A stretch of 31,722 nt of DNA from IMG/VR virus record IMGVR_UViG_3300046007_005029, positions 1-31,722 of that record, one strand, 5' to 3'. This document shows, one piece after another, positions 126 through 28,346 of the stretch. The position numbers and the translations under genes are program-made. The notes beneath the pieces were generated by a model. It had not been told where the DNA came from. It was given only the letters and a program-made list of their open reading frames with translations, and did no database searches. This stretch comes from a virus. Its lineage: Duplodnaviria; Caudoviricetes. Numbering within the stretch: the stretch's first letter is position 1; each line of letters starts with the position of its first letter.

Positions 126-1034
126 TTACGCGCCTGGCGAACCGTACATGCCGAGCGGGTCAGACCAGCCGAACGAATAACGCTCACGAGACTTGTAACG
201 AACGTTACCAGTATCGAAGTCACCATCCATCGACTGCTGCAACGGGGTACGCACAAAGTGCTTCATACCGTTAGGCACGTCAGTGGTCAGGAACCATGCG
301 TTCGTGTCGGTCAAGAAGTGGTTGATCGTAAAGCCTTCTGGGATCGAACCGTTGTTCTTGATTGCGTTCACGTCGTTGTCGTTGGTACCGACACGCAGTT
401 CAGTTTCCAGCAGGCGGGTTGCCACGAACTGCAATGCAGGCGGGACAATCAGCTTGCGGGGCTTGGCTGCGATCAGCAGGCCACGTTCGTCGGTCCAGCC
501 TGCGATTTGAATCACAGCGTTTTCCAACGAGGTTTCGTTCAAATCTGCCGCAGTGGCAGGCTCGTTCGAGTTAGTGCCGCCTGATACCAGAGGGTGCGAG
601 TCAGAGAACAGAGCAACGCCGTCGCCACCAGGGTAGCTGTTGGAGAAGCCGTTGTTCAAAACTGCTGCTGCTTTTACCTGCTTGGTATACGACATAGCAC
701 GAGCCAGCGCCTTGGTATAACGAGCCGACAGGCTGTCATACAGGTTATCTTCGATGGCCTCTTCGGTCAGCGAGAAACCCAGAGCGATGGTTTCGTGGTT
801 GTATCGAGCAGTCCAAGCTTCCTGGCCGTTGTCGTACGAGATCGCAGAACCTTCGTTCTTGACCGGTGCGGCACTGAAGCCAGACAGTTTGGTTTCTTCT
901 TCGAAGGAACGCTCGGAAGTCTCGGTTTCGTAGATTTCCTTGTGCTCTTCGCCGTAGCGAGCATACTCCATGCCGAACAAAGCGTTCAGGCCAGGCAGCA
1001 GCTCTTTCAGTAGTTGTGCGCGTGAAATAGCCAT
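126..1034 (-). CDS. Major capsid protein (Mu gpT-like family)
   Basis: 302 aa; MAISRAQLLKELLPGLNALFG start and KPRKLIVPPAL...AWFL...DFDTGNVRYK..ERYSFGWSDP motifs typical of this MCP family; AAGGAG RBS; follows scaffold and portal. Confidence 0.9.
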   Translation of the reverse strand: MAISRAQLLKELLPGLNALFGMEYARYGEEHKEIYETETSERSFEEETKLSGFSAAPVKNEGSAISYDNGQEAWTARYNHETIALGFSLTEEAIEDNLYDSLSARYTKALARAMSYTKQVKAAAVLNNGFSNSYPGGDGVALFSDSHPLVSGGTNSNEPATAADLNETSLENAVIQIAGWTDERGLLIAAKPRKLIVPPALQFVATRLLETELRVGTNDNDVNAIKNNGSIPEGFTINHFLTDTNAWFLTTDVPNGMKHFVRTPLQQSMDGDFDTGNVRYKSRERYSFGWSDPLGMYGSPGA

Positions 1035-1044
1035 GTCTTACTCC

Positions 1045-1725
1045 TTAAACGCCAACAGGGTTGTTGTACTGATGGCCACCGGTGACGGTCGAAGTAACAG
1101 TAGTTGTCACAACGTTAGTCGAGGTGTTCAGTGTTGAAGTTGCGGTAGACACCACATACGGTGCGTTGAATTTGCAAATAAATTCGCAGAAGCTACCACC
1201 GGAGTTGGCCGTATCTGGCACAACGTCGATGATGCGAATTGGCAACGATGCAGTGGTAGCCACCGATGCGCCGTTAATTGCAACAGCCGAATCGCCCGTA
1301 GTAGTCGAACCAGCGTTCTGAACCAGCGGTGCGTTCGAGCCAACAACGGTCTGTGCGTAGAAAGCCACAACAGTTGTACCCGAAACAGCAGCTACCTTAA
1401 ACAGAACATCAGGATCATCCACAACATAAGCCTGAGCATCAGTAGCGACCGTGTTAGCTGGCCAGTACTGAGTTTGCAGTCTTTGCTTGGTTGTTGGGTT
1501 GGTATAAACGCAGCCCAAGAAAACACCTACAGGGGTTGCAGTTGTAGTGCCGGTGTCTTTCTCAACGGTGCCAGAAGATACCAGTTTCACAACGTCGCCA
1601 TAGAAGATGTCAGTGTTGTACTCACTAGCAATCTTCATGAGACGAGTGGAACCGGCATACACCTGACCACCGATCAGGTTTACCGGACGTAGGCCGTAAG
1701 GGGCCGATACAGTCGGATATGCCAT
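1045..1725 (-). CDS. Putative capsid decoration/cement protein
   Basis: 226 aa, rich in G/T/V/A; APYGLRPV and IFYGDVV..GVFLGC.Y..VVDDPDVLF motifs; directly upstream of MCP with an identical initiation region. Confidence 0.6.
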   Translation of the reverse strand: MAYPTVSAPYGLRPVNLIGGQVYAGSTRLMKIASEYNTDIFYGDVVKLVSSGTVEKDTGTTTATPVGVFLGCVYTNPTTKQRLQTQYWPANTVATDAQAYVVDDPDVLFKVAAVSGTTVVAFYAQTVVGSNAPLVQNAGSTTTGDSAVAINGASVATTASLPIRIIDVVPDTANSGGSFCEFICKFNAPYVVSTATSTLNTSTNVVTTTVTSTVTGGHQYNNPVGV

Positions 1726-1745
1726 GTCTTACTCCAAAAAGTTTG

Positions 1746-2186
1746 TTAGCCCGCCTTAGAAACCGAAGACTTCGATTCCTTAAAGAGAGGCATCCGAGGG
1801 TCATTTTGACGCATCAGATTATTGTCTACCGACTGGAGTTGGCCTTCAGCTTGCTTCAAGTAATAAGCATTACGCTGTTCGACAAACTCTATAGGCGTCT
1901 TGCAGAGCAATAACCCGCCGACCTCAACGTTGTCTTTGAATCGACTGTTGGGGTCTACCATCAATTGAAACTGGGGCTGTTCCTCTAACTTCACCGGCTC
2001 CCAACCTTCTCGCTGTTTAGCAGAGATGTTGCGGGGATCGGCTGTATTTAGAGTAGAAACCCTAATCCATCTGTACGCAAAGCCAGGCTGCTTATCCGGT
2101 TCTGGTAACAGTTCCGGTGGTGTCCAAGCCTTTGGACGTTCTGCCGTTGCTCGCGTTTCTATACTACGTGGTGTCTTATCAGCCAT
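1746..2186 (-). CDS. Conserved phage head-module protein, function unknown
   Basis: Start moved to ATG 2186 (GGAGG RBS); PGFAYRWIRVS..D.RNIS...REGWEPV..VGGLLLCK motifs; lies between scaffold and decoration genes. Confidence 0.7.
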   Translation of the reverse strand: MADKTPRSIETRATAERPKAWTPPELLPEPDKQPGFAYRWIRVSTLNTADPRNISAKQREGWEPVKLEEQPQFQLMVDPNSRFKDNVEVGGLLLCKTPIEFVEQRNAYYLKQAEGQLQSVDNNLMRQNDPRMPLFKESKSSVSKAG

Positions 2187-3141
2187 TTTTGGCCTCCAAT
2201 TTTTGCATTTCACGGATGTAAGCTTCTGGGGTAATACCCAATTTCTTGATTGTGTTTACCGTAGACTGCTTCAGTTTGACCTTTTTGGAGGCCGTCGTGC
2301 GCGTCGCCGGAGCTACAACCGTCGCTGCTTTCTCTGTACGCTGTCGGTTTGTGGACGGCGTTTCTTCTTGCGAATCTGAAAATGCCTCTGGGAAGCGTCG
2401 TCTCATCGTATGATCGACCTTCTGCCAGTATTCGTCCGTAGACGGATAAGCCTGACCGTATTCGCTTACGAGCTTTTGGTGTAAGCCCAAAGCCAAACTG
2501 GTCATCTCCGGATCCTTTCCAAACCACTGATTGCGCTCTTGCCACGCCATCATCTTTGGATCAGGCCGGGATGCCGGCACTTCTGGCTCGCGTTGTACAA
2601 CAGTTTCTTCCTGTTGTAAAGCAGGCACGTATTCACTTGCCCGCCGCAACTTGTACTGAGCGTCATTCAGCTGCTGCTGCGCCTCTACCAACTTCTCCGG
2701 ATCGCCCATGTCATAGGCATCCTTGTAGGCACGCTTGGCAACATCCAGCTCCATCTCCGCTGCCGTCTTGTACGTATCCACGAACGTCTGCTCGCCGCGC
2801 GAGATCCGCCCCTTCAACGACTTGTTTTCCTCCATCATTCGCTTGGCGAAATCGATGGCTTCCTGCTGCTCACGCAACGCCTGCTCTTTCTCACGGCGCT
2901 CGTCGTTCCAGACCTTCTTCAGCTGCTTCAGCTTGGTCTTGACGTTGTCGGAATACTCCTCCAACTCGTCCTTCTCAAGCTCCTCCACTACATTCTTGGG
3001 TAAAGGCTGTCGGCCACGGTCAACCTCGGGCGTATCGTCCTCAATCTCAATCTCAAACTCGTCTTCCTGCGCAGCCTCTACCTTCTGCTCTTTTTCGTCA
3101 GGAAACTCGAAATCATCCATCTGCATTTGATTTGCCATCAT
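2179..3141 (-). CDS. Putative capsid scaffolding protein
   Basis: 320 aa, acidic N-terminus, long coiled coil, C-terminal KKLGITPEAY helix; position between portal and MCP; AAGGAG RBS. Confidence 0.65.
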   Translation of the reverse strand: MMANQMQMDDFEFPDEKEQKVEAAQEDEFEIEIEDDTPEVDRGRQPLPKNVVEELEKDELEEYSDNVKTKLKQLKKVWNDERREKEQALREQQEAIDFAKRMMEENKSLKGRISRGEQTFVDTYKTAAEMELDVAKRAYKDAYDMGDPEKLVEAQQQLNDAQYKLRRASEYVPALQQEETVVQREPEVPASRPDPKMMAWQERNQWFGKDPEMTSLALGLHQKLVSEYGQAYPSTDEYWQKVDHTMRRRFPEAFSDSQEETPSTNRQRTEKAATVVAPATRTTASKKVKLKQSTVNTIKKLGITPEAYIREMQKLEAKNG

Positions 3142-3152
3142 GTTTCTCCTTG

Positions 3153-3554
3153 TTAAGCCCGACTAATGCCGCGTGGATCATCTACTACTGCCTCCACCGT
3201 ATCGTCGTTCAGAAGTCTGAATTCACGACCGTGAATCTTCAGACGGGTGCCAGAGTTAGGACGGGCGAGAATGAAATCCCCTTCCTTGCACCACGGACCG
3301 TTTGGAAACCGTTTCTCATCTTTGTAGCAGTCCGGTCCCAATTTCACTACGAAGAACACCGTAGCCAGCACTTGTTCGTGGTGCATGGTGGCGTCCGCTT
3401 TTGCTAACCCGCTTTCAAACTTATCTTCCACTTCCGGCAACGCTACCAGGATGTGATAGCCCGTCGGTTCGGGAAGTTGTTTGGCCTTCTCCTCTGCTGT
3501 TTGGGGCAGAGTGGATACTTCACCGCTGTCTGTGGCGATGGCGATCTCAGTCAT
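3153..3554 (-). CDS. groES: GroES-like co-chaperonin (Cpn10)
   Basis: PEPTGYHILV..ESGL..VVKLGPDCY..PWCKEGDFIL...SGTRLKIHGREFRLLNDDTVEAVV matches the Cpn10 pattern. Confidence 0.85.
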   Translation of the reverse strand: MTEIAIATDSGEVSTLPQTAEEKAKQLPEPTGYHILVALPEVEDKFESGLAKADATMHHEQVLATVFFVVKLGPDCYKDEKRFPNGPWCKEGDFILARPNSGTRLKIHGREFRLLNDDTVEAVVDDPRGISRA

Positions 3555-3738
3555 CAGAAAACTCCATTTGTTTTGCTAGATCAAGAATGAAACCTTCGGC
3601 CATTGATAAGCCTCTGATTTCCCCGCAGAGCTTTTGGTACTCTGCATAGTCCTTAGCCGCGTTGGTGGACACGGCCTCAACTATCTGTTGTCGCTTCTGC
3701 CTGATTTGCTCTAGCAGTACTTCCAGCGTTTTTTCCAT
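3547..3738 (-). CDS. Small conserved phage protein between portal and groES
   Basis: 63 aa helical, DYAEYQKLCGEIRGL motif, AAGGAG RBS, overlaps groES start. Confidence 0.7.
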   Translation of the reverse strand: MEKTLEVLLEQIRQKRQQIVEAVSTNAAKDYAEYQKLCGEIRGLSMAEGFILDLAKQMEFSDD

Positions 3739-3741
3739 ACA

Positions 3742-6204
3742 TTACTCCTTGCCTCTTGTCGGCTTTGGTAACTGTGGACGATTCATTGCTATTTGATCTT
3801 TGGCCATTTGGGAACCGAGTCTGACGCCCTCTAGCTCCATCTTTGCCTCAAGATCTGCTTTGTCTTTGGCGGTTTTGGCGCCAACCTGCATACCTGCAAT
3901 CTCTTTCTGTGCCTCGATACGCTCTTCCTCAATCCGCAGACGGTCAGCTTTGTCAGCCATATCAATAGCAAGCTTCTGCTTCTTCAGCTCCAGCTCCTGC
4001 TGCTTCAACTGCAACTCTGCCTGCTGCATCTGGACAATCGGATCTTGCGCTGCTTCCTGCGCCTGCTGCTGTTGCTGCTCTGCCTGATCCTTCTGCAACA
4101 ACTTGCCTGCCGCGGCTGCCATCATCCGAGACACTTCGACTTCCATTTCCTCCGGCAATTCCTTGTCCATCTCTGGCAGCGGAACGCCCAGCATCTCTTC
4201 AATCTGCTTGCGATATTCAAACGCCGTATGCTCTGCAATGTGCGCCTGCATCGCCGCCTGCATTGCTTGAGCATTCGGGTTCTGGCCAATTGCCTGCATG
4301 ATCTTCGGATCCTGCATTACAGACGTATGCACCTGAATGTGCGCCTGATGATCCTGATAAATGAACGCCTTCACCGGCTTCATATTCATGATGGCCATGT
4401 TTTCCGATACCGGATCTTTCGGCTTCTGATCCTCCGCGCCCGGCACCAGCTTGCCGATGTTCTTAATACCCAGAACATCTAGCATCTGACGGTTCAGCTC
4501 CACCATGTCGTAGATCTGCGGGTTCTGTTGCGCCATCTGCATCACAGCCTGATACTGCACAACCTTCTGCGCCATCGTGGCCGAGTTAGGATCGGACACT
4601 GGGATCACATCCACCTGATCGTAGTCAGACTGTTTCGCGCGGCGTGTACCCTCGACCGGCTCGTAGCTGTACTCTTCAGGGGTGTAGTCGCGGATGATCT
4701 CTTTTAGCAGCTTTAATTCCTGCTTCATCGCGTAGTGCATACGCGCCTGCACCGCAGACATAACTTTCAGGGTGCGCTCGAGAATCGCCAGAGTCGTACC
4801 TACCGGCGAGTTGGCCGACATATCCGCTACCTTCAGATCAGCCGCCGAGGCAAAACGGCGCCCCTCTTCGACGATCTGATTCATCAAGGTCAGAAGGACC
4901 TGACTTGGCTCCTTATAGGGAAGAGGCAGGATATTGTCTCGTATCGTTCCTGCCGCAACGTCCACATCTCGAAACTCTCCCGGTGCAATCGGGGTGTCAT
5001 CGCCTTTAACTCGCATCCCTTTGGTCTTAAGTCCGCCAGGGAGGTTGGATAATGTGCCGGCGTCCACGAGCTGACGAATGATACTAGTGCCAGACTTAGC
5101 GAAAGCGCCAATAAGATGTATGAGGCCAAACGCATAGAATCCAAACCCCGGTATGTAGGGATAATGGACAAAGTGGGAGCGCTTCTGTTTGCCCTCGTCC
5201 TCCGGATGGTAGTTGCGCCGGATTGCCAAGATTTCCTGTGATGTCTTTTCAATCGTGACAATATACGGAAGCCCGATCCCAGTTTCCTCGCCATCATCGT
5301 CTTTATCCTCATAGCCGGGCAGATCTAAATAGACCTGCATTTCCAAGAGTTTGTACCGATCATCCGTCGTGGCTCGGAAGCCCATCTTCTCGGCAATCTT
5401 CTTCTCAATATCGTCCAGCACATTCTCAGGTTCTGGCAGGTCAATATCTCGATAAAAGCCAGCCACCATCAACTTGCGCAGATCGTTCTTAGTCTTCCTC
5501 ATGACATGCGTCACACGCGGCGCTGTCTCTAAGTTACTCGCCCCGTACGGCACCACCACATCTTCCGCCGGTACATAAATAGACACCTGACGGTCCAGAC
5601 TTGGATCGAAGTAAACCTTCTTGAACCCGTTGCCAGACAAGCCCAAGCCCCACAACATACGCTCATGCTCCGGGCGATACTCCACCATCACCTCGGTGAG
5701 CTGGTAGTTCATGTCATCCCGGACTCGGTCTGAGGCTTCTTTCTTTTCGGGTGTCTCTTTGCCAATGATCTTGGTTTTAACCGGCCCAGCGGCAGGGAAA
5801 GTTTCCATGATCGTCTCAGACTGGAACTTAACCAAGGCTTCCGAAAGGAGCGGGTGGTAGACCCCGCAGGCGCCTTCCCACGGTTCAGACCGTTCTTCAA
5901 TCTTCATCCCCAATAGTTCTAGGCCATCGACATACGTTTGCATCCAATCCTTGCGACTGGAGATGTCCTCGTCAAAATCACCGATCAAGTCACCCGCGAT
6001 TTCCTGCAACACGTCTTCCGGCAAGTGTTCTGCCAAGTTGGCGTTGAACTCATCGTCAGGCACGTCCGGCTCGATCTCAATCTCCAGCCCGCCGATCCCA
6101 ATACTCACCGACTCCGGATCTTCGATCTCAATCTCAATCTCCGGCTCCATTTCCTCTAGCCCAGCCGGTGCTTGGTACAAAGCTTTGTCAAAATTGGTTG
6201 CCAT
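3742..6204 (-). CDS. Portal protein
   Basis: 820 aa immediately after terL; D..SRKDW, PWEGACGVYHPLL, G.GFKKVYFD motifs; Q-rich coiled-coil C-terminal barrel as in P22-like portals. Confidence 0.85.
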   Translation of the reverse strand: MATNFDKALYQAPAGLEEMEPEIEIEIEDPESVSIGIGGLEIEIEPDVPDDEFNANLAEHLPEDVLQEIAGDLIGDFDEDISSRKDWMQTYVDGLELLGMKIEERSEPWEGACGVYHPLLSEALVKFQSETIMETFPAAGPVKTKIIGKETPEKKEASDRVRDDMNYQLTEVMVEYRPEHERMLWGLGLSGNGFKKVYFDPSLDRQVSIYVPAEDVVVPYGASNLETAPRVTHVMRKTKNDLRKLMVAGFYRDIDLPEPENVLDDIEKKIAEKMGFRATTDDRYKLLEMQVYLDLPGYEDKDDDGEETGIGLPYIVTIEKTSQEILAIRRNYHPEDEGKQKRSHFVHYPYIPGFGFYAFGLIHLIGAFAKSGTSIIRQLVDAGTLSNLPGGLKTKGMRVKGDDTPIAPGEFRDVDVAAGTIRDNILPLPYKEPSQVLLTLMNQIVEEGRRFASAADLKVADMSANSPVGTTLAILERTLKVMSAVQARMHYAMKQELKLLKEIIRDYTPEEYSYEPVEGTRRAKQSDYDQVDVIPVSDPNSATMAQKVVQYQAVMQMAQQNPQIYDMVELNRQMLDVLGIKNIGKLVPGAEDQKPKDPVSENMAIMNMKPVKAFIYQDHQAHIQVHTSVMQDPKIMQAIGQNPNAQAMQAAMQAHIAEHTAFEYRKQIEEMLGVPLPEMDKELPEEMEVEVSRMMAAAAGKLLQKDQAEQQQQQAQEAAQDPIVQMQQAELQLKQQELELKKQKLAIDMADKADRLRIEEERIEAQKEIAGMQVGAKTAKDKADLEAKMELEGVRLGSQMAKDQIAMNRPQLPKPTRGKE

Positions 6205-6213
6205 GTTTCATCC

Positions 6214-7695
6214 TCAGTAATAGCTTCGCTTACGGCGGAAGCCTAAATCCTCGTCATCTTCGTCCGTGTCCAGCCGCAAGAACCCGCCTTGCCGAAATCG
6301 CATAAGCGCCTGCACACTGGAGTCCACCAGATCGTCGTGTTCCGCGTTCGGGAACCGCGCCATCTCTTCAATTACCTCGTCCGCCCACCTAGTCTCGGGC
6401 GCCCACACTTTACCGGAAGAAAATAGGTCTGTAACGCTGTTCAAACGCACGAACTTGTCGTTCCCTTTTGTCGGCGTGTAGTCCTGAACCATCACACCCA
6501 TCCGTCTCAACTCGTGAATCAGCGGCGCACCCGCAGCTTTTGCTTCAATAATGCAGGAATCCGGCTCCCATTCGTCATAAAGCCGCTTGGCCATGGCCTT
6601 TAACTCCGGAAATTCCACCTTTTCCTTCCACGCATCCAGCAAAATGATGTTCACATCACTCGGATCTTCATTCAAATGGAACACACCCCACGTCGTACAC
6701 GCAGAATAGTCAGCCCGTTGACTCTTAGAGTACGCCGTATCCCAACTTTGGATGATAAATTCACACGCAGGCGGCCTTTCTCGCTCCCACCGACGCCACC
6801 AGTCCCGCTTTACTATCGCACCCTCTTCACCCGTGGGCTTTTGCTGGTACTGGGCGTTCCATTTATACGGTGGAAGTTCTTCTTTTAACGCCTCCAACTC
6901 CTCCAGCGCCCAGAATTCTGGCCATAGAGAGCTGCCGGACGGCAAAATTGCTGGAAGTTCTATCAACTCCCACTCAGTACTGTCACTTTTTATCACCCGG
7001 CCAGTCAGATCCTTGTCCGACCAGCGCGTCATCACCACCACTATCGCCCCGCCCGGCTGTAAACGCTGCCGTGGGCCAGACGTGTACCACTCATAAACAC
7101 TATCAAAGACGCTCGGATCCCCTTGCGCCAATCTCGCTTCCTGTTCCGAATGCGGATCGTCAATAATCAGCAGATCAGCACCCTTACCCGTCACCGTCCC
7201 GCCAACACCAATCGCAAAATAATCGCCACCGTGTGACGTCGCCCAACGACCCGCCGCCTTAGAATCCGCTCTCAGCCCCACATTCGGGAATATTTTCGCG
7301 TACGCCTCACTATCTACCAGGTTCCTGACCTTCCGGCCAAACCCCACCGCCAGTTCTGCGGTATTCGACGTCTGGATCACCTTCTTATTCGGATACTTCC
7401 CCAAGAACCACGCCGGCAATAAGTAACTCGCAAACTCACTTTTCGTGTGCCGCGGCGGCATATTAATAATCAGCCGCTTTAACTTCCCCTGCGCTATCTC
7501 CTCAAACTTCTTGGCCATAAGAGCATGATGCCGCCCGTGTATAAACCCCGGCCACATCTCTTTCACAAAAGCCATAAAAGATCCCTGCGCCTTCTCCCGT
7601 ACCAGCGCGTCCTTATACTCCCCCACCTGGGCTAATAACTTCTCCTGCTCCGCGCGCGGCAACTTCCCTATCAGCTCAGATAAATCCATACTCAC
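6214..7695 (-). CDS. terL: Terminase large subunit
   Basis: Walker A-like INMPPRHTKSE, Walker B LLIIDDPH, motif III VMTRW, RNase H-like SWDTA and HDDLVDS. Confidence 0.95.
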   Translation of the reverse strand: MSMDLSELIGKLPRAEQEKLLAQVGEYKDALVREKAQGSFMAFVKEMWPGFIHGRHHALMAKKFEEIAQGKLKRLIINMPPRHTKSEFASYLLPAWFLGKYPNKKVIQTSNTAELAVGFGRKVRNLVDSEAYAKIFPNVGLRADSKAAGRWATSHGGDYFAIGVGGTVTGKGADLLIIDDPHSEQEARLAQGDPSVFDSVYEWYTSGPRQRLQPGGAIVVVMTRWSDKDLTGRVIKSDSTEWELIELPAILPSGSSLWPEFWALEELEALKEELPPYKWNAQYQQKPTGEEGAIVKRDWWRRWERERPPACEFIIQSWDTAYSKSQRADYSACTTWGVFHLNEDPSDVNIILLDAWKEKVEFPELKAMAKRLYDEWEPDSCIIEAKAAGAPLIHELRRMGVMVQDYTPTKGNDKFVRLNSVTDLFSSGKVWAPETRWADEVIEEMARFPNAEHDDLVDSSVQALMRFRQGGFLRLDTDEDDEDLGFRRKRSYY

Positions 7696-8003
7696 TCCAA
7701 ATACCTAAACTGTATATACACAGGCCGTACACTCCTCACCGCCCCCTTCACCTTCTTCAATACCCCCAACTTCACCAACCGCCCAATAATCTCACTCGTA
7801 TTCCCCATCCCACCCTTCCCACGGATATCACATATATCCCGTATAGAAGGACCAAACCCATACTTCTTCCACCACTCATCCACAATCAAAAAAACCTCTC
7901 TCTGCGCCGGCGTCATCACCATACCCTCACATTCCTCAAACGTCTTCTCCCGACGTCTAGCCACCATGTCCCTGTTAATCTCTATTTTGTTGCGATGCGG
8001 CAC
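7692..8003 (-). CDS. LexA-like winged-helix DNA-binding protein (N-terminal domain only; start uncertain)
   Basis: MTPAQREVFLIV.....KYGFGPSIRDIC.......S....RLVKLG.LKK..GAVRSV aligns by eye with the LexA DNA-binding domain; no peptidase domain. Confidence 0.7.
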   Translation of the reverse strand: MPHRNKIEINRDMVARRREKTFEECEGMVMTPAQREVFLIVDEWWKKYGFGPSIRDICDIRGKGGMGNTSEIIGRLVKLGVLKKVKGAVRSVRPVYIQFRYLE

Positions 8004-8039
8004 AAAAAAAACCCTTATAAATCAATGCTCCGACCCCCG

Positions 8040-8059
8040 TCTTGGAATTACTTCCAAGA
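8040..8059. promoter_or_regulatory. Palindrome TCTTGGAA-TTAC-TTCCAAGA, putative protein binding site
   Basis: Perfect 8 bp inverted repeat in the gap between terS and the LexA-like gene; 15/17 identical to the repeat unit at 16490-16506. Confidence 0.55.
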
Positions 8060-8061
8060 TT

Positions 8062-8814
8062 TTATTGCGGTGCAGCACCATCTTTTCCCAAAAATATATC
8101 CCCCCCGGGGGTGTCCGTTTCGCCAGACAAGGGGGTGGGTTCCGATTCTGGATAGGATGGTTCGTGTGGATTAGTATGTGTACCCAGGCCGGAGTCCCAT
8201 TCCCCTGATTGGGGTGATACCCCCGCGGTGGGACCATCATCCTCCTGATTTGCATCCCCTCCCCCCACTAATTCTGTGAGCAGAGCGCTTGCATCCACGT
8301 CGACAACGTCTTCTGACTGCAATGCAATCGATTTAAGCTCTTGCAATATGCGCTCTCTCATTTGTGCGCTGTCGTTGATCGTGGTGATTTGTTTGCGCTC
8401 GGTGAATGCTGCTACTTCCGTCACCGTGCCAAGGACCTTAGCCGCTTGTATCTTGGTTGCGGCTTTCACTTCGGGGTCGATCAGCGCAGAAGTGAGGGAA
8501 GAAATTACAAGCGACCGCAAAGCTTCGGCGGAATGCAACGCAGCTACCTGTTTTGCCTGTTCTAGGGCTTCTATTTCTCTCTTTATTCTCTCTTGGGCTT
8601 TCAGCATACTCGCTTTAGTACCGATAATCTTCGGGCTAGCCTTGCTGTCATAAGCGGTTCTATACGCATCCGCCCCTGTCATTTCATCCAATACAAGCGC
8701 TTCCGCAAACTTTCTTTGCTTGTGTGTGAGGGATTGGCGGGGAACTCTGAGGACGGAAGCTATTCCTTTTCCCTCTATAGCTTCCTTCAATTGTTTTCTA
8801 CTTGGGGTCTTCAT
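8062..8814 (-). CDS. terS: Terminase small subunit
   Basis: LTHKQRKFAEAL....TGADAYRTAY...........ASML.....IKREI matches the TerS N-terminal HTH; upstream of terL. Confidence 0.75.
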   Translation of the reverse strand: MKTPSRKQLKEAIEGKGIASVLRVPRQSLTHKQRKFAEALVLDEMTGADAYRTAYDSKASPKIIGTKASMLKAQERIKREIEALEQAKQVAALHSAEALRSLVISSLTSALIDPEVKAATKIQAAKVLGTVTEVAAFTERKQITTINDSAQMRERILQELKSIALQSEDVVDVDASALLTELVGGGDANQEDDGPTAGVSPQSGEWDSGLGTHTNPHEPSYPESEPTPLSGETDTPGGDIFLGKDGAAPQ

Positions 8815-8969
8815 TTGGTGCCGTTGTTCGCTCCGCTCACTTGCGGCTTACGGGCGGACAATACCGGAACAAATACAGAAAATCAATCACTCGCCCAAAA
8901 CTGATAGCCAGACTATCGATTCCAGGCGCTTGATTAAAAAATACAATGAAAAAATGCAATATGTCCCCC

Positions 8970-8997
8970 TTGATTTATATATTGTTTCGTCTAATAT
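8970..8997 (+). promoter_or_regulatory. Putative sigma70 promoter of the early gene cluster
   Basis: TTGATT-16 nt-TAATAT with A-tracts upstream (8930-8955), about 45 nt before the first plus-strand ORF. Confidence 0.55.
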
Positions 8998-9042
8998 CCC
9001 TTCCATGCGCTTCACTCCGGAGCGCTTCACTAAGGGGATGAA

Positions 9043-9228
9043 ATGAACAAGGCACAAGCGAAACAAGTAGCAATGATTGAAGTCTACCTATCCAACGATA
9101 TGCGCGATACAGCCGCTCGGAGCCTATCGGCGCTCATCCGCTCGGCGCTAGTAAATAAAACCGCCCAAGAGTTCCATGCAATAGCCGCCAAGCATGGATT
9201 GAACACTCATCCGGATTTCATCGTTTAA
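9043..9228 (+). CDS. Hypothetical early protein
   Basis: 61 aa, TAAGGGGA RBS, first gene after the promoter, followed by a terminator. Confidence 0.7.
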   Translation: MNKAQAKQVAMIEVYLSNDMRDTAARSLSALIRSALVNKTAQEFHAIAAKHGLNTHPDFIV

Positions 9229-9235
9229 CCCGACC

Positions 9236-9257
9236 GCCGGAGCGCTTCCGGCTTTTT
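9236..9257 (+). terminator. Rho-independent terminator/attenuator
   Basis: GCCGGA-gcgct-TCCGGC followed by TTTTT. Confidence 0.7.
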
Positions 9258-9274
9258 AATCATAAGGGGGAATT

Positions 9275-9448
9275 ATGACTATTACCGTCACCGTCCGCGA
9301 TATCTACGGCATTCAGACAATCTATCCGGCTTGCGATACCGCAAAGTTACTCGCACGGCTAGCCGGAACTAAGACACTCACTCGCCAAGCGCTCGAAACA
9401 ATTAAGAAGCTCGGCTATACCGTCACCGTCACCGCTCCGACAATCTAA
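9275..9448 (+). CDS. Small phage protein (57 aa), not in the ORF track
   Basis: Translated by hand: MTITVTVRDIYGIQTIYPACDTAKLLARLAGTKTLTRQALETIKKLGYTVTVTAPTI; TAAGGGGGAA RBS; YG..TIYP.C..AK..A..AGTKTLT is a recurrent phage early-protein pattern. Confidence 0.8.
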   Translation: MTITVTVRDIYGIQTIYPACDTAKLLARLAGTKTLTRQALETIKKLGYTVTVTAPTI

Positions 9449-9457
9449 GGGGAAACC

Positions 9458-10210
9458 GTGAAAAATCCATTTAAAGCACAATTGCAAGCCGAGGGATTGC
9501 CCTATCGTCCTATCCTCGGCGAATCGTCCGCTAAAACCGTCAAGGGTGAAAAAATCGGCTACTTGACGGCTATTTGCTACCTAGTACCGGATGAGAAGCT
9601 TTGCCCCTTTGCGAAGCTTGCCGGATGTTTCGACGGCTGTCTGAAATCCGCCGGACGCGGTGCTTTCAATTCCGTGCAAAAGGCGAGAGCCGCGAAAACC
9701 AAATTTTTTAACCAGCACATCCGCGCTTTTATGCTTTCCATGTGCGCTGATATCTGGACTCACAAGCGCCGCGCCGAAAAGCTTGGATTGATACCGCTTG
9801 TACGTCCCAATGGCACGTCCGATATCCCTTTCGAGAATATCAAAATCGACGGTCGGACAATTTTTCAGATATTCGCGGATGTTCAATTCTACGATTACAC
9901 AAAACACCCAAGCCGAAAGTTAGAAGGGAAAACAGCCGGTAATTACGATTTAACTTATTCATTCTCGGCGCTCACTCCGAGGACGGTTTCCGTCAAGGGT
10001 TTATCCAATGTCGCAAATCAGCGGACGGCTGTGGTGTTCTTGCACCGCTCAGAAATCCCCGAAACCTTCCGCGGCTGGAAAGTAGTTGACGGTGACGATA
10101 CGGACGTGCGGCATATTGAGCCGACCGGCGTAGTAGTGGCGCTTTATGCCAAGGGAAAAGCTAAAGCCGATACAAGCGGTTTTGTTCAAATCAAGGGGAG
10201 GGATTATTAA
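9458..10210 (+). CDS. GP88-like protein (radical-SAM-like Cys motif)
   Basis: LCPFA..AGC...CL..AGRG, VRPNGTSDI, VQFYDYTK, NYDLTYSFS, VVDGDDTDVR motifs characteristic of 'gene product 88'; GTG start with AAGGGG RBS. Confidence 0.7.
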   Translation: MKNPFKAQLQAEGLPYRPILGESSAKTVKGEKIGYLTAICYLVPDEKLCPFAKLAGCFDGCLKSAGRGAFNSVQKARAAKTKFFNQHIRAFMLSMCADIWTHKRRAEKLGLIPLVRPNGTSDIPFENIKIDGRTIFQIFADVQFYDYTKHPSRKLEGKTAGNYDLTYSFSALTPRTVSVKGLSNVANQRTAVVFLHRSEIPETFRGWKVVDGDDTDVRHIEPTGVVVALYAKGKAKADTSGFVQIKGRDY

Positions 10211-10407
10211 TGCTGAACACCGATCAAAAAGACATCACGTTTTATGTCACCGAAGAAACGGACGGCGAAGACATGGACGGCTTTGTGGTTCATTACGTCG
10301 ACTCGACAGGAAGCACGATTTGGAGCGAATTCTACGAAACAATGGACGATATAAGGGTTGCTTACAGGGAAGAAATCAAATCAGGACAATTTGAAGGGGA
10401 AATTTAA
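10210..10407 (+). CDS. Hypothetical acidic protein
   Basis: 65 aa, D/E-rich, TAATG coupling to the upstream gene. Confidence 0.65.
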   Translation: MLNTDQKDITFYVTEETDGEDMDGFVVHYVDSTGSTIWSEFYETMDDIRVAYREEIKSGQFEGEI

Positions 10408-10408
10408 C

Positions 10409-10600
10409 ATGGATAACATCAAAAAAATTGAAACCGAAAACACCGGCGGCGGCACTATGGTCGACATTCTTACGCTATGGAACGGCAGAGTTATTGTCGT
10501 TAGTGATGAGTATGTCGGCGTGTATACCAGCAAAGAGGATTTTTATAACTCGGTGGTCGATGACGATGAATCGAAAATGCTCGGCGGTTCTTGGTACTAA
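10409..10600 (+). CDS. Hypothetical protein
   Basis: Start moved to ATG 10409 (GAAGGGGA RBS); NTGGG.MVD motif. Confidence 0.7.
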   Translation: MDNIKKIETENTGGGTMVDILTLWNGRVIVVSDEYVGVYTSKEDFYNSVVDDDESKMLGGSWY

Positions 10601-10610
10601 GGGGGAAATT

Positions 10611-10838
10611 ATGCGAACAATCACAGCCAGATACGCCGGTTTTTGCGCGGCTACCGGCGCTCGAATCCTAGCCGGTGACGTTATCCAATGGCAAAAGGGG
10701 AAAGCCGTACTGTTAAAGCGGAAAGCCGTCCGCGTGGATACCGTCACGCTGTACGGTGACAAAGGTCCGACCGAGTTTTATAGAAACGCGCGGGGGCGCT
10801 GCGAGGACGCGCCCTGCTGCGGATGCTGCACTATTTAA
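10611..10838 (+). CDS. Small basic Cys-rich protein
   Basis: Start moved to ATG 10611 (TAAGGGGGAA RBS); ARYAGFC...G..I..GD.I N-terminus and RCEDAPCCGCC C-terminus. Confidence 0.75.
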   Translation: MRTITARYAGFCAATGARILAGDVIQWQKGKAVLLKRKAVRVDTVTLYGDKGPTEFYRNARGRCEDAPCCGCCTI

Positions 10839-10851
10839 AAGGGGATTAATC

Positions 10852-11067
10852 ATGCAAAAAAATCAAATGTACGGCCATGAGCAGTTTGTCTGCGTTTGGA
10901 ATGTTTCAACGGACAAATTTGTCACAGAAATTCATGACGGTAGTTTCTTTAACAAGGACAACGGCTATTCAGAGGATGACATAGAGTGTGTTACCGATTT
11001 GCTGATCGGCGAATCGACTGACATATCAGGTCCGACACAAGCGCATTATGTTATGCGCGTCTACTAA
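10852..11067 (+). CDS. Hypothetical protein
   Basis: Start moved to ATG 10852 (AAAGGGGA RBS). Confidence 0.65.
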   Translation: MQKNQMYGHEQFVCVWNVSTDKFVTEIHDGSFFNKDNGYSEDDIECVTDLLIGESTDISGPTQAHYVMRVY

Positions 11068-11098
11068 TACAGCACACAAATTCTAAAAGGGGATTGAC

Positions 11099-11278
11099 AT
11101 GGAAAAGCTACACGCACACGACAAGGAAACATGGTTAGACACAATCTGGTCGGCGCTCCACGCCTACAGAGGGGATTGCATTCCGGAGGGGAAACCGGCT
11201 TTCGACGATGAATGGTCCGACATATGCACGGCCATGGCATGGATTGAGGAAGAGCTAGATTTGCAGGACGAATTCTAA
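11099..11278 (+). CDS. Hypothetical protein (59 aa), not in the ORF track
   Basis: MEKLHAHDKETWLDTIWSALHAYRGDCIPEGKPAFDDEWSDICTAMAWIEEELDLQDEF; AAAGGGGA RBS; fills the gap exactly. Confidence 0.75.
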   Translation: MEKLHAHDKETWLDTIWSALHAYRGDCIPEGKPAFDDEWSDICTAMAWIEEELDLQDEF

Positions 11279-11290
11279 AAGGGGGTTGCC

Positions 11291-11473
11291 ATGCTTGAAG
11301 TGTATGAATTTTACTTTTTCGAGCCGTCCGTAAACCGGTTTGGGCGGCTATGCATTGCCGCCGATAGTGAATGGCAGGCGCTGATGCGGTTCAACGAAAT
11401 CGACGATTTAATATTCAAAGGGCAGAAGCTGATTAAATTTATTGAAGGGGGTTGCTATGATGAAAAAGGGTGA
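11291..11473 (+). CDS. Hypothetical protein
   Basis: 60 aa, AAAGGGGG RBS. Confidence 0.6.
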   Translation: MLEVYEFYFFEPSVNRFGRLCIAADSEWQALMRFNEIDDLIFKGQKLIKFIEGGCYDEKG

Positions 11474-11822
11474 GTACTACGTTGGGGACCTTTGCTATGT
11501 GCTTGACGATGCCACATGGGACAGGCTTTGTGATCTGCGGTGCGGTGGTTATCAGCCGCTTGACGGTGAATTCGAATTGCCGGACGGGCGGCGGGTTGCC
11601 ATGTTTCAGACAGCCTACGGGGACGGTGTTTACGAGGGGTCTTGCGGCGGCCAATATTTGGTTGACTCGGGATCGATTGGGTGTATCCGCGTGTCAGATT
11701 TACAGCCAGAACATCAGGACGATTCGTCATGGGGACACTTCGTGGAGTTCGACGAGGACTTCACCGTCGAATCAGATCACGGCGTGATCCGCATTGGTCA
11801 CGTTGAAATTGACACAAACTAA
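11457..11822 (+). CDS. Conserved phage protein (DUF4241-like)
   Basis: YYVGDLCYV, TAYGDGVY, VDSGSIGCI motifs; GAAGGGGG RBS. Confidence 0.65.
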   Translation: MMKKGEYYVGDLCYVLDDATWDRLCDLRCGGYQPLDGEFELPDGRRVAMFQTAYGDGVYEGSCGGQYLVDSGSIGCIRVSDLQPEHQDDSSWGHFVEFDEDFTVESDHGVIRIGHVEIDTN

Positions 11823-11838
11823 ATGAGGGGGGCAGATC

Positions 11839-12006
11839 ATGAACTTGTACAGATTCGAATGCGTCATATGGGTGAAAGGCGAAAGCCTTGAGGAAGCGCA
11901 AAGGGAATTGCACGATGAGGCGCTGTACCACTTTGCGGGGGACAACAACCTGGTTTCGCTCCAAAGTAACGATGGCGAGCTGGTCGAAGATGACACCGAT
12001 TTATAG
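11839..12006 (+). CDS. Hypothetical acidic protein (55 aa), not in the ORF track
   Basis: MNLYRFECVIWVKGESLEEAQRELHDEALYHFAGDNNLVSLQSNDGELVEDDTDL; GAGGGGGG RBS. Confidence 0.7.
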   Translation: MNLYRFECVIWVKGESLEEAQRELHDEALYHFAGDNNLVSLQSNDGELVEDDTDL

Positions 12007-12015
12007 GGGATTGCC

Positions 12016-12366
12016 ATGAAAACAAGTGAACTAAAAGGCGCAGCTCTTGATTGGGCGGTGGCTAAAGCTAAGGGCGTGACGCTGTACCCAAGCAAGCAAG
12101 GCAAGTGGATGCTCAAAAACTATGGTGAGTTTAATCATAGGCACGGAACACCGTGGTGGAATCCGTCAACCAACTGGGCGCAAGCCGGAACGATTATTGA
12201 CCGAGAGGGCATTTGCTTGGTGTTTTACCAGCACAAAATATGGGATGCTCACATGGATAACGTAAACTTTTATGAAACCGGCACGACCCCACTCATTGCA
12301 GCCATGCGCTGCTACGTTGCTAGCAAACTAGGTGACGAGGTGGAATTGCCGGAAGAACTGCACTAA
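12016..12366 (+). CDS. ninX: NinX/DUF2591 family protein
   Basis: L.GAALDWAVAKA...PSTNWAQAG.IIDREGI...G.TPLIAAMRCYVASKLG. Confidence 0.8.
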   Translation: MKTSELKGAALDWAVAKAKGVTLYPSKQGKWMLKNYGEFNHRHGTPWWNPSTNWAQAGTIIDREGICLVFYQHKIWDAHMDNVNFYETGTTPLIAAMRCYVASKLGDEVELPEELH

Positions 12367-12566
12367 TGACTAGCCAACGGATGTTTACCCTGCACCTGCT
12401 CGAGGATGAACTCGGGCGGGTGAGGGTTGTGTCTGACTGGTCCGGCGAGGGTCAGCGCTGTCTTGCTTTGGGCATAGAGATTATGCAAAGTCTGCAAGAT
12501 ATCCAGCCGTTCACCGATGGCGAATTAACTTTCGTCCTACCCGCTCGCACTGACATTGAACATTAA
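12366..12566 (+). CDS. Hypothetical protein
   Basis: 66 aa, TAATG coupling; converges on the primase gene with a 30 nt overlap. Confidence 0.55.
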   Translation: MTSQRMFTLHLLEDELGRVRVVSDWSGEGQRCLALGIEIMQSLQDIQPFTDGELTFVLPARTDIEH

Positions 12567-13376
12567 ATGCGTCAGGCTTTGCGACAGCGCAAACAACCCT
12601 GCTCTCTGGTGGTAGTCGTTGGCATCCTCCCCCGCCACATCCGACAGCCAAGACGGCCAGCCGATTTCCTTGGCGGCTTGCTGCCCTGTACCAGACACAT
12701 CATTGTCTGCAATCACGATGCCGCGCTCGAGTCCCGCAGCTACCCGCACCATATTCCCCGCGGAGAAACAAACATGAAGCTTGTATCTTTGCTTCATGCT
12801 TTTCAGCGCAGCGCGAACGGACAGCGCAGTCGCGTACCCCTCACACACGACATTGATTCCCCTATTGTCAAAGCAAAAGGTCGCTCCCGCTGTCTTCTGA
12901 CCGTAGAGAAACCGCTTTGTACCTTCGGCATCGATCTGCTGCACACCGACCAGGCTGCCGTTCACCCGCATGGGAATCAACAAAATCGGCTGGCCGCCCT
13001 GATAAAAGACGTGGCCTTCTTCTTCCTTGAATCCCTTGTTCATGAGATACGGATGCGTCTGAGTGGTGCTGCCATTCAGCATATCAACGGCACGCCTCAC
13101 CGCATCATGCTGTCGCTTCCTGGTCTCCGCTTCCGCCTGCCGCTGCCGCTTAGCCAGATCGTGAATGCTGGGTGCCGCTTCCTTTGAGGAAGGCTTCCAG
13201 ATTGAAACGACTGTGCTGGTTGCATGGTTTTGGACAAAGCCATGGTCACCCATGTATTTGACCGCCCCGTTCCTGCTGCGCGGATGATCCTCGGTGGGAT
13301 ACCGCTTCCATTGGCCGAAGGGGGGATGCTCAGAGATCAGGATGCCATGCGACTTGCAAAAGTTTATGAAGTCCAC
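12537..13376 (-). CDS. Toprim-domain DNA primase (P4 alpha/TraC-like, no helicase domain)
   Basis: HPYL..KG, LLIPM, VCEGYATALS, VIADND, D.NDY motifs; start moved to GTG 13376 (GAGGGGG RBS). Confidence 0.85.
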   Translation of the reverse strand: MDFINFCKSHGILISEHPPFGQWKRYPTEDHPRSRNGAVKYMGDHGFVQNHATSTVVSIWKPSSKEAAPSIHDLAKRQRQAEAETRKRQHDAVRRAVDMLNGSTTQTHPYLMNKGFKEEEGHVFYQGGQPILLIPMRVNGSLVGVQQIDAEGTKRFLYGQKTAGATFCFDNRGINVVCEGYATALSVRAALKSMKQRYKLHVCFSAGNMVRVAAGLERGIVIADNDVSGTGQQAAKEIGWPSWLSDVAGEDANDYHQRAGLFALSQSLTHLMFNVSASG

Positions 13377-18170: not shown

Positions 18171-18422
18171 TTACGCGCCCTGACGCTCAGTAGCATTACT
18201 GCTTTCAAAGTGGGCGGTGATGATTTGTTTGGTCTTGTTCGCCGTTTTTTGTGGAAGCACTATTCCCGCATCCATCAAATTTTTAAGACGGCCTAATTCA
18301 GAACAGACTTGATCAACCGACAGCCCAAATTTACGAGCCAGATCTTGCTGTTCTTTAAGCGTCACGGCGTATGTCTTCCGAGTATCGTTGGACATTGGCA
18401 GGAAAAGCTTTTGAGACAACAT
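18171..18422 (-). CDS. Hypothetical protein downstream of the C4-like RNA
   Basis: ATG 18422 has an AGGGG RBS 7 nt upstream; earlier starts run into the terminator. Confidence 0.5.
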   Translation of the reverse strand: MLSQKLFLPMSNDTRKTYAVTLKEQQDLARKFGLSVDQVCSELGRLKNLMDAGIVLPQKTANKTKQIITAHFESSNATERQGA

Positions 18423-18454
18423 GACCTGGCCCCTGAGGAGTGTCATCGGAAAAC

Positions 18455-18568
18455 CAAAAGAAAAAACCCTCAAGGCTTGGCTCTCCGTGTGTCAGGCACG
18501 TCCCCACTGAAGGGGTGAGAACCAAAGCTTGAGGGCTTCGGTGTTTGTCGCCGCCTGACACAGTGACG
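18455..18568 (-). ncRNA. C4/CI-like antisense (immunity-type) RNA with leader target and terminator
   Basis: Outer stem CCCTCAAG 18467-74/CTTGAGGG 18528-35, inner stem, two hairpins (CGTG-tgtcagg-CACG; CCCC-actgaa-GGGG); 18488-97 is complementary to leader 18553-62; U-tract follows. Confidence 0.7.
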
Positions 18569-18573
18569 AGCGC

Positions 18574-18602
18574 AGTGTAGGTCAGGATGAGATGGATTGC
18601 AA
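18574..18602 (-). promoter_or_regulatory. Sigma70 promoter for the C4-like RNA
   Basis: TTGCAA (18602-18597)-17 nt-TACACT (18579-18574). Confidence 0.7.
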
Positions 18603-18649
18603 GTGGCAGCTTAATTACTTTTTTGAAAAGCCGCACTATATATATGTGA

Positions 18650-18733
18650 AACAATAAACCCCGTCTTTCCGGGGTGTCACTACTCGCTACGTCTGACAGG
18701 AAGGGGGAACCTGCCAGCATCCGCTTTCGATAG
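18650..18733 (-). ncRNA. Candidate ~80 nt small RNA with a UUCCCCCUU apical loop
   Basis: Own promoter; CUG-GCAGG/CCUGU-CAG stem closing loop 18701-18709; terminator ACCCCG 18658-63/CGGGGT 18670-75 followed by UUAUUGUUU. Confidence 0.65.
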
Positions 18734-18737
18734 TGAG

Positions 18738-18766
18738 AGTATACAGGAACGGTATATTGCAATCAA
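18738..18766 (-). promoter_or_regulatory. Sigma70 promoter for the ~80 nt sRNA
   Basis: TTGATT (18766-18761)-17 nt-TATACT (18743-18738). Confidence 0.7.
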
Positions 18767-28078: not shown

Positions 28079-28346
28079 GAAGTATATGGACGAAGTAGCC
28101 GGGATCGGCTGCGTTCTCTGTCTTCATCTTGACTACGGCTATACCCCCGCCGTCCTGCATCATCCTCGTGATGCGGTTGGCGGGGCGCAGCGTGCGTCAG
28201 ACTGGCTGGTGATTCCTCTTTGTCCGGAACATCACACCGGTAAGTCGGGATACCACGGACTAGGAAGCAGAGGCTTTTATACACGGTACAAACTTACAGA
28301 GTGGGATCTGATGGCCATGACTATTGAGCGCCATCAAAAGCTTTAA
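28065..28346 (+). CDS. Ref/DUF968-like HNH protein
   Basis: GCVLC...LHHPR...GGAQRASD..VIPLCPEHH.G..G.HG. Confidence 0.75.
   Translation: MKTVKKYMDEVAGIGCVLCLHLDYGYTPAVLHHPRDAVGGAQRASDWLVIPLCPEHHTGKSGYHGLGSRGFYTRYKLTEWDLMAMTIERHQKL

Follow-up and report, generated by a model that had tools for sequence, protein, structure and literature searches.

The small-gene block and its features

The window (the whole stretch of DNA analysed, 31,722 nucleotides) is a 31.7-kb freshwater phage contig in which a block of small genes sits between the terminase and primase genes. Gene calls were made with a custom script and are uncurated. The portal protein is 41-45% identical to those of HTVC023P, HTVC027P and CRP-901/902, and a GroES gene is present. 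Both traits are shared with the HTVC023P-type podoviruses as described in the accessible part of PMC9599517, from which this phage differs in being a freshwater one; in the main text of that article the words "Shine" and "hypervariable" do not occur. None of 60 ORFs scanned matched a DNA polymerase. Relatives of the GP88 gene found in genomes are distant (28-42%), and capsid relatives occur in MAGs of many phyla, probably as co-binned phage contigs. A search of the literature at the level of main texts, with subscription papers mostly out of reach, yielded nothing on the arrays of this phage group.

The left boundary of the block is the divergent terminase small subunit gene (8062..8814, minus strand; phrog_51, E 3e-7), the position of which is kept in most relatives reaching that far; the right boundary is the convergent primase gene (12537..13376, minus strand; phrog_2249). 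The features described between them are on the plus strand. A putative sigma70-like promoter (TTGATT-16-TAATAT, 8970..8997) was read by eye; it stays under the threshold of the promoter scan, and the surrounding region is variable among relatives. A 5' leader hairpin with CCGGAGCGC is predicted at 9007..9025 (z only -1.4). Its arms are the same in seven of eight aligned loci, and the locus L011 has another hairpin-compatible sequence. Junction 1, from AGGGG to ATG, lies at 9033..9045, and in relatives differing first genes follow one and the same leader. Cassette gene 1 (9043..9228, 61 aa) has no assigned function and no match in PHROG or Pfam; it is replaced in loci L001, L004, L006 and L009. 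The terminator-like hairpin behind it (9236..9258) carries the 12-mer CCGGAGCGCTTC of the leader, which is thus present at 9017 and 9237. Judged from the sequence, this hairpin is likely a second exchange point: identity reaches it in 3 of 24 pairs with the same downstream gene, and one lake-metagenome run has the joint 9047>9236.

The array continues with junction 2 and a 57-aa gene (9265..9448, gene from 9275), the family of which also occurs in a sister lineage, and with the stop-fused junction 3 and the GP88-family gene (9448..10210, gene from 9458; PF17338, E 3.5e-32; phrog_1617). Junction 4 (10194..10407, gene from 10210) lies within the upstream ORF, has an ambiguous Shine-Dalgarno (SD) sequence and is followed by four different downstream genes across relatives. 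Junction 5 (10395..10600, gene from 10409), the stop-fused junction 6 with a Cys-tailed gene (10600..10838, gene from 10611; phrog_2656, phrog_5664) and junction 7 (10840..11067, gene from 10852) come next. Junctions 8 and 9 are the two copies of a 14-bp repeat, AATTCTAAAAGGGG, at 11079..11092 and 11271..11284. A cassette gene of 59 aa (11099..11278) lies between them, and the second copy precedes a gene of 60 aa (11291..11473) that is missing from L004 and whose protein found no relatives beyond known clade contigs. Junction 10, again within the upstream ORF, opens a phrog_20074 gene (11446..11822, gene from 11457); junction 11 a gene of a family also present in the sister lineage (11826..12006, gene from 11839); and the stop-fused junction 12 a NinX-family gene (12005..12366, gene from 12016; PF10765, E 4.5e-22), a family which in the sister lineage stands behind AGGAGATCAGACG. 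The conserved last block gene (12366..12566, 51-member family) is without GGGG and, in the loci that were displayed, lies next to the primase gene.

The twelve starts preceded by AGGGG open plausible ORFs of 55-250 aa. The block is a hypervariable array of single genes: save for two near-duplicate pairs, the clade loci differ in gene content and order. It is called early from its position only.

The AGGGG motif and its dependence on array lineage

The sequence-only reading had held that twelve consecutive genes share a non-canonical AGGGG(G) initiation signature, often fused to the previous stop codon. All twelve starts are indeed preceded by AGGGG(G), the G-run ending 4-11 nt from the start. 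The start at 10210 is ambiguous because AGGGG is 11 nt away and GGAGGG is closer. The longer matches were recovered as well, AATTCTAAAAGGGG at 11079 and 11271 and GGGG(A/G)TTG(A/C)(C/T)ATG at 11089, 11281, 11447 and 12006. Fusion to the stop applies to about half of the cases: the motif touches or nearly touches the stop in 6 of the 11 internal junctions, and in the other five it lies inside the upstream ORF (three) or behind a spacer of 20-36 nt (two). The common core of the window junctions is 5 nt only, with variable spacers. A pattern scan for AAAGGGGATTGMCATG returned 68 stretches, the majority of which either repeat known clade contigs or are single matches that seem unrelated.

The motif is distributed unevenly across the modules. 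Within 9031-12018 lie 16 of the 28 plus-strand copies of AGGGG in the window, and GGGG is found at -16..-4 in 12/13 block genes versus 3/43 others (Fisher p=1e-8). In the 12 clade loci, window included, the contrast is 84/97 versus 16/64. The label "non-canonical" was too strong, as predicted pairing makes AGGGG a G·U-wobble SD variant: AAGGGGG scores -9.8 and AAGGAGG -10.7 kcal/mol against a generic anti-SD that may not be that of the host. This good pairing could mean that the motif merely mirrors the SD preference of the host. We regard this as very improbable, since 33/43 non-block genes of this phage have GGAG/GAGG and phages with 95% terminase identity have 0-1 GGGG sites per 10-13 array genes, with a GGAG motif instead. 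The mirroring that the sequence-only reading had allowed for is thereby largely refuted.

In these sister phages the locus has joints of the AGGAGATCAGAC(G) type, and gene order is nearly randomised: among 537 pairs with the same upstream gene, the downstream gene differs in 498, and 37 of 165 family pairs are found in both orders. The relation between the lineages was viewed with a quick version of a helicase tree only. Within shared gene families GGGG is present in 60/68 versus 22/130 cases by lineage. Hence the motif follows the array lineage and not the gene. Since another repeated motif occupies the same spot in the sister lineage, AGGGG is likely to be a recombination joint specific to its lineage and not a new signal for translation.

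Another possibility is that the initiation regions are read or spared by an RNA-binding protein, an sRNA or a GGAG-specific nuclease that times early translation, as proposed for the SAS of mycobacteriophages. In favour of such a regulatory address, the motif is limited to one putative early operon, and the sister motif, a 12-nt word, is exact in 207/297 cassettes, although its loci were found using the motif. GAC within 6 nt of the start occurs in 196/621 array genes versus 29/362 others and recurs across lineages. Furthermore, GGAG is somewhat rare in the coding sequence of clade arrays, with 11 occurrences against 26.7 expected; the shortfall is less marked in sister cassettes (29 versus 46) and in other window genes (113 versus 160). 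However, GGAG is depleted in all gene sets (7th, 8th and 2nd of 256 words), and because this depletion is general, avoidance of a GGAG nuclease is weakly supported. CsrA-type avoidance of GGA was rejected: 9/12 sites retain GGA, which does not agree with escape from a GGA-binding repressor. Against an address also speak the mere 5-nt core in the window, the drift of spacers and motif along the array, and the replacement of the motif between lineages that share gene families. Rfam has no family match anywhere in the window, and the CCCCCTT at 8965-8971 is not conserved and sits upstream of the putative promoter. We therefore consider a regulatory address doubtful.

Exchange points and probable homogenisation of the joints

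When relatives are aligned, gene gain, loss and replacement fall in the zone between AGGGG and ATG. Of the two roles suggested from the sequence, cassette shuffling is thereby supported; the regulatory address is not. Sequence to the left of AGGGG tracks the upstream gene, and sequence to the right of ATG tracks the downstream gene. In 19 of 20 comparisons with the same upstream and a different downstream gene, identity stops no earlier than GGGG and no later than two codons past the start, and in none does it stop before the motif; with the same downstream gene it begins no more than 12 nt upstream of the motif in 21/24. These compared pairs are not independent events, and because AGGG(G/A) was used both to pick and to align the junctions, identity of the core is built in.

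One case is the 192-bp gene between the AATTCTAAAAGGGG copies, which is cleanly missing in L002 and in one lake-metagenome contig (run X5), where 14 letters at the joint 11078>11271 match both sides. Other joints in lake-metagenome contigs lie at the motif or a start codon (9047>9266, 10209>10611, 10839>11270, 11103>11279). The contig joints were placed at 88-90% likeness; most were flagged "between: not known", and several had a short side of only 21-30 letters. The assembled lake contigs showed no circle, back-jump or crossover intermediate. Clean direct-repeat indels involve 14, 15 and 12 nt. Across 18 indel events, the exact flanking repeats average 8.2 nt, and 10 of them have only 5-6 nt.

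These short repeats leave room for homology-independent recombination followed by selection, with survival limited to products whose genes are intact and whose ribosome binding site works, so that the motif would not guide the breakpoints; this alternative of random joining plus selection is stated in the accessible text of PMC3029335. It would account for flanking repeats whose length does not significantly exceed that in random junction pairs from one genome (8.2 versus 7.0 nt, p=0.17) or in near-neighbour junctions (8.2 versus 7.5 nt, p=0.35). It would also suit the commonest lake joint, 10417>10613 (5/8 runs), where the break is just inside the ORF starts and off the motif, as in the loss of gene 10409-10600 from relatives including L002, and the stop/start-overlap fusions behind the GP88 gene, which have little in common beyond the SD. 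What it leaves unexplained are words of 12-16 nt, extending beyond the SD, that non-homologous genes of one array have in common, as well as the lineage-specific word and the gradient between neighbours. Junction similarity falls with distance along the array (rho -0.37, 0/2000 permutations). In 76 de-duplicated arrays the longest common word is 5.80 within versus 4.55 between arrays (p=3e-6), an excess that is absent in 26 of the 76; in the flanking genes the corresponding values are 4.53 and 4.29 (p=0.10), i.e. no significant excess. We regard illegitimate recombination plus selection as rather unlikely.

The best reading is that the stop/SD/start boundaries have been homogenised by recombination. 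With moderate confidence we propose that AGGGG-to-ATG is an SD variant marking gene borders which serves as a short shared sequence for recombinational gain, loss and reordering of genes. A single upstream promoter would drive the block as an early operon. A crossover within the stop/SD/start joint would keep both neighbours complete and translatable, and such products would therefore survive. Repeated unequal exchange would homogenise the joints, so that a drift from GGAG to GGGG, still pairing with the 16S rRNA, could spread through the array of a lineage. The likely catalysts would be the PD-(D/E)XK exonuclease and Erf single-strand annealing protein of the phage (20596..22357, plus strand; PF12705, PF04404), candidate recombination machinery by their domains. 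Stretches of 5-15 nt are short for annealing recombinases.

A more far-reaching version would be an integrase-free cassette system with the joint sequence as its compatibility code: GGGG-type and AGGAGATCAGACG lineages would have partly separate pools, cassettes crossing between them would receive the local joint, and a phage factor would read the joint specifically. Such a factor would account for the nearly random order of genes in the sister lineage, yet we give this version little credence.

Comparison with known systems

Whether phage mosaicism arises via shared boundary sequences or by random joining and selection is an old open question. The locus offers a natural comparison, with the same terS-to-primase slot, overlapping gene families and two homogenised joints, of which the one in the window is degenerate and the one in the sister lineage nearly exact, with almost randomised gene order. 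It also illustrates that an odd, module-specific ribosome binding site need not be a regulatory code but can be a footprint of evolution. The arrays provide a catalogue of small genes that, from their position only, are candidates for host takeover or counter-defence.

The PeSLs of T4-type phages each comprise a sigma70 promoter and a stem-loop; mini-circles have been demonstrated, and crossovers are reported to fall in the stretch from the -10 box to the SD or ATG (PMC2839356 and PMC4122927, accessible parts). As there, small genes without assigned function lie in a hypervariable region with indels and replacements at repeats ending in SD and ATG. Unlike PeSLs as these parts describe them, the joints here are 10-16 nt and have neither promoter nor stem-loop. 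A plus-strand promoter scan of 8700-12700 gave no match, and most junctions have no room for a promoter; stem-loops are found only at the leader and at 9236, and junctions 8 and 9 fold no better than shuffles.

The SAS of cluster K mycobacteriophages is, in the accessible text of PMC3203893, a well-conserved 13-mer found genome-wide and common to subclusters; it is proposed to be regulatory, although control of translation through a trans factor is unproven. SAS/ESAS resemble the present motif as a repeated, SD-overlapping word before the starts of genes belonging to different families, with base conservation that extends past the rRNA-pairing part, and the ESAS repeat consensus varies between subclusters, akin to the lineage-specific motif here. 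No ESAS-like inverted repeats were found. In contrast to the SAS as described there, the motif is confined to one array (on the 31.7-kb contig, which probably does not cover the complete genome); it is degenerate in the window, and another motif replaces it in the sister lineage. A long fixed word of the SAS type is not seen in the window with its 5-nt core, but the sister lineage has one of 12 nt.

In the accessible text of PMC3029335, short conserved boundary (linker) sequences are a proposed source of phage mosaicism; like the motif here, they are short shared sequences at borders where otherwise unrelated genes exchange. Unlike the linkers described there, every operon joint here carries the motif, which is itself the stop/SD/start, and two alternative versions exist in the same locus of related phages that share gene families.

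Phage genome and AGGGG joints

The window derives from a tailed phage, with minus-strand capsid, GroES, portal and terminase genes at 126-8814. Thirteen genes, most of them small, form a plus-strand block at 9043-12566 that would be 'early' judging by its position; minus-strand primase/helicase/methylase genes and an exonuclease-Erf block are also present. The portal is 41-45% identical to that of HTVC023P-like phages, the best matches being three cyanophage-labelled records (45%), and the samples best matching this phage are lake metagenomes. Other genes encode a DNA methyltransferase, a SAM-dependent methyltransferase, a PAPS-reductase-like protein and, on the minus strand at 28343-31660, a large DarB-like antirestriction protein (phrog_10089), whose gene is probably cut short where the contig stops. 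On its plus strand, a gene-poor stretch between divergent blocks (18390-18760) has CAGGA words in several places, together with hairpin-like segments; it has no Rfam match.

The AGGGG motif is a real feature. The sequence-only reading had proposed that twelve consecutive block starts share it, and indeed AGGGG(G) precedes every one of them, ending 4-11 nt upstream; the longer repeats were also present where that reading had placed them. Nor is GGGG equally frequent in all modules. By our own gene calls it lies before 12 of the 13 block genes but before 3 of the 43 other window genes (p=1e-8), 33 of which have GGAG or GAGG upstream. The motif is a wobble Shine-Dalgarno (SD) sequence. With a generic anti-SD in place of the host's own, AAGGGGG pairs at -9.8 and AAGGAGG at -10.7 kcal/mol, and block sites pair more strongly on average than the rest (-9.7 vs -7.0). 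The 10210 site is ambiguous because GGAGGG is nearer to the start than AGGGG. At 6 of the 11 internal junctions the motif directly adjoins the stop of the upstream gene or lies very close to it. Elsewhere, the middle block has its own repeated RBS word, GGAGAAGAACACATG, in two copies (19844 and 20203), and GGAGTAAGACATG precedes two genes of the head region (1735 and 1044, minus strand).

Exchange points in a hypervariable array

For comparison, loci with a GP88-family gene were gathered, 80 of them viral and 80 metagenomic, as were 44 with the primase. Eleven non-redundant loci fall with the window into a GGGG group, where GGGG precedes 84/97 array genes vs 16/64 flanking genes. Between terS and the primase gene their gene lists differ by single genes and in gene order; the block is a hypervariable array.

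We compared the 86 junctions, chosen for AGGG(G/A), that remained once one with a miscalled neighbour had been removed. Sequence left of the motif tracks the upstream gene, sequence right of the ATG tracks the downstream gene, and the spacer tracks either. In these motif-anchored comparisons, whose events are not independent, the identity of same-upstream pairs stops in the interval from GGGG to two codons beyond the start in 19/20, and that of same-downstream pairs starts at most 12 nt before the motif in 21/24, the other three extending to the terminator hairpin. Some cassettes (L004 3226-3627, L007 2910-3323, L008 2718-3131) combine two window-type genes as chimeras or fusions, with common N-termini and different C-termini; thus exchange occurs inside genes too.

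In the cleanest case, locus L002, the gene at 11099-11278 is missing between two copies of AATTCTAAAAGGGG. It is also missing in a contig of metagenome run X5, where 14 letters match both sides. Among eight metagenome runs we found the further joints 9047>9266, 10209>10611, 10839>11270 and 11103>11279 (window positions), though for the majority of metagenome joints what lies between is not known and several have short sides. Six more fall within the GP88, 11839 or NinX genes and may derive from other phages. At the commonest joint, 10417>10613 (5/8 runs and L002), the breaks lie shortly after the ORF starts. For 18 indel events the exact flanking repeats averaged 8.2 nt vs 7.0 nt for random same-genome pairs, which is no significant excess (p=0.17); they measured 10-15 nt in 6/18 and only 5-6 nt in 10/18. 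Since repeat lengths are near chance and the commonest joint is off the motif, these data show where exchange occurs and not that homology causes it. The cassette shuffling proposed by the sequence-only reading is supported by the exchange points, though not by repeat length. That selection alone places exchange points at the joints seems improbable to us.

Motif, array and lineage

In a sister lineage the same slot contains AGGAGATCAGACGATG in up to about ten copies. A pattern scan for it matched 119 stretches; these reduced to 55 loci of three or more cassettes each, with a total of 297. In these loci, ascertained through the motif itself and counted by motif-bearing cassettes only, the stop abuts the motif at 168/200 junctions, 498/537 pairs with the same upstream gene differ in the downstream one, and both orders occur for 37/165 family pairs. 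In three loci (L334, L357, L420) the leader cassette, about 26 aa long, lacks a stop codon: its frame stays open across the 12-nt joint, read as GDQT, and continues into various downstream cassettes, so that N-terminal fusions arise in shuffled combinations. The sister joint contains GATC despite the depletion of this word in array genes of both lineages (21 vs 32 and 29 vs 53 expected); other window genes show none (131 vs 123).

Five families are found behind both joint types. Ahead of the NinX-like gene, the window and locus L361 have CCGATTTATAGG in common, followed by GGATTGCC and AGATCAGACG, respectively, which suggests that the two joint types are homologous. Other lineages have yet other joint words; homologous arrays contain AGGACTGACCTATG (L140 4518-5723), GGAAAACGACC (L083 963-1900) and TAACGGGAG (L051/L052).

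The motif tracks the array lineage. For families present in and out of the GGGG group, GGGG precedes 60/68 copies inside vs 22/130 in 66 loci outside. Of 177 loci with a block, de-duplication and a minimum of five genes left 76. In these arrays the longest word common to upstream 20-mers of unrelated genes is longer within an array than between arrays (5.80 vs 4.55; 50/76 arrays; p=3e-6); the same test on flanking genes gave no within-array excess (27/45; p=0.10). Neighbouring junctions of the GGGG group are more alike than distant ones (rho -0.37; 0/2000 permutations), as predicted by local homogenisation. A regulatory address, also raised by the sequence-only reading, is a shade less probable still than selection alone. 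Array coding sequence has less GGAG than expected (11 vs 26.7), but this is seen in other sequence as well; GAC lies near the start in 196/621 array genes vs 29/362 others, yet homogenisation accounts for GAC too, and the window has no Rfam match.

Terminase identity to the window is 95% in six sister-type loci vs 89% in one GGGG-type locus, and the window primase clusters with sister-type phages (support 100/99). Hence array and joint move as a module, and it is very unlikely that the motif mirrors the SD preference of the host.

Proposed mechanism and known systems

We consider recombination at the stop/SD/start joints, which homogenises them, the best explanation and a reasonably probable one. 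Most likely, one putative promoter (8970-8997; below the promoter-scan threshold) would drive a polycistronic array, acting with a conserved leader hairpin, the fold of which is not significant. As the joints would unite stop, SD and start, a crossover within two of them should yield whole, translatable genes. Repeated exchange would homogenise the joints, by which a tolerated GGAG-to-GGGG change could spread; the Erf and exonuclease genes are candidate catalysts. The plus strand carries two copies of CCGGAGCGCTTC, one in the leader hairpin (9017-9028) and one in the terminator that follows gene 1 (9237-9248); they may mark another exchange point or else signal attenuation or antitermination.

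Our literature search, covering main texts, found no description of such arrays for this phage group. Gene shuffling at AGGGG joints works like PeSL-mediated shuffling (PMC2839356, PMC4122927), but the joints have no promoter or stem-loop each and do not qualify as PeSLs. The motif resembles SAS elements (PMC3203893), from which it differs in being limited to one array and varying by lineage. The joints also fit the idea of boundary sequences that PMC3029335 summarises.
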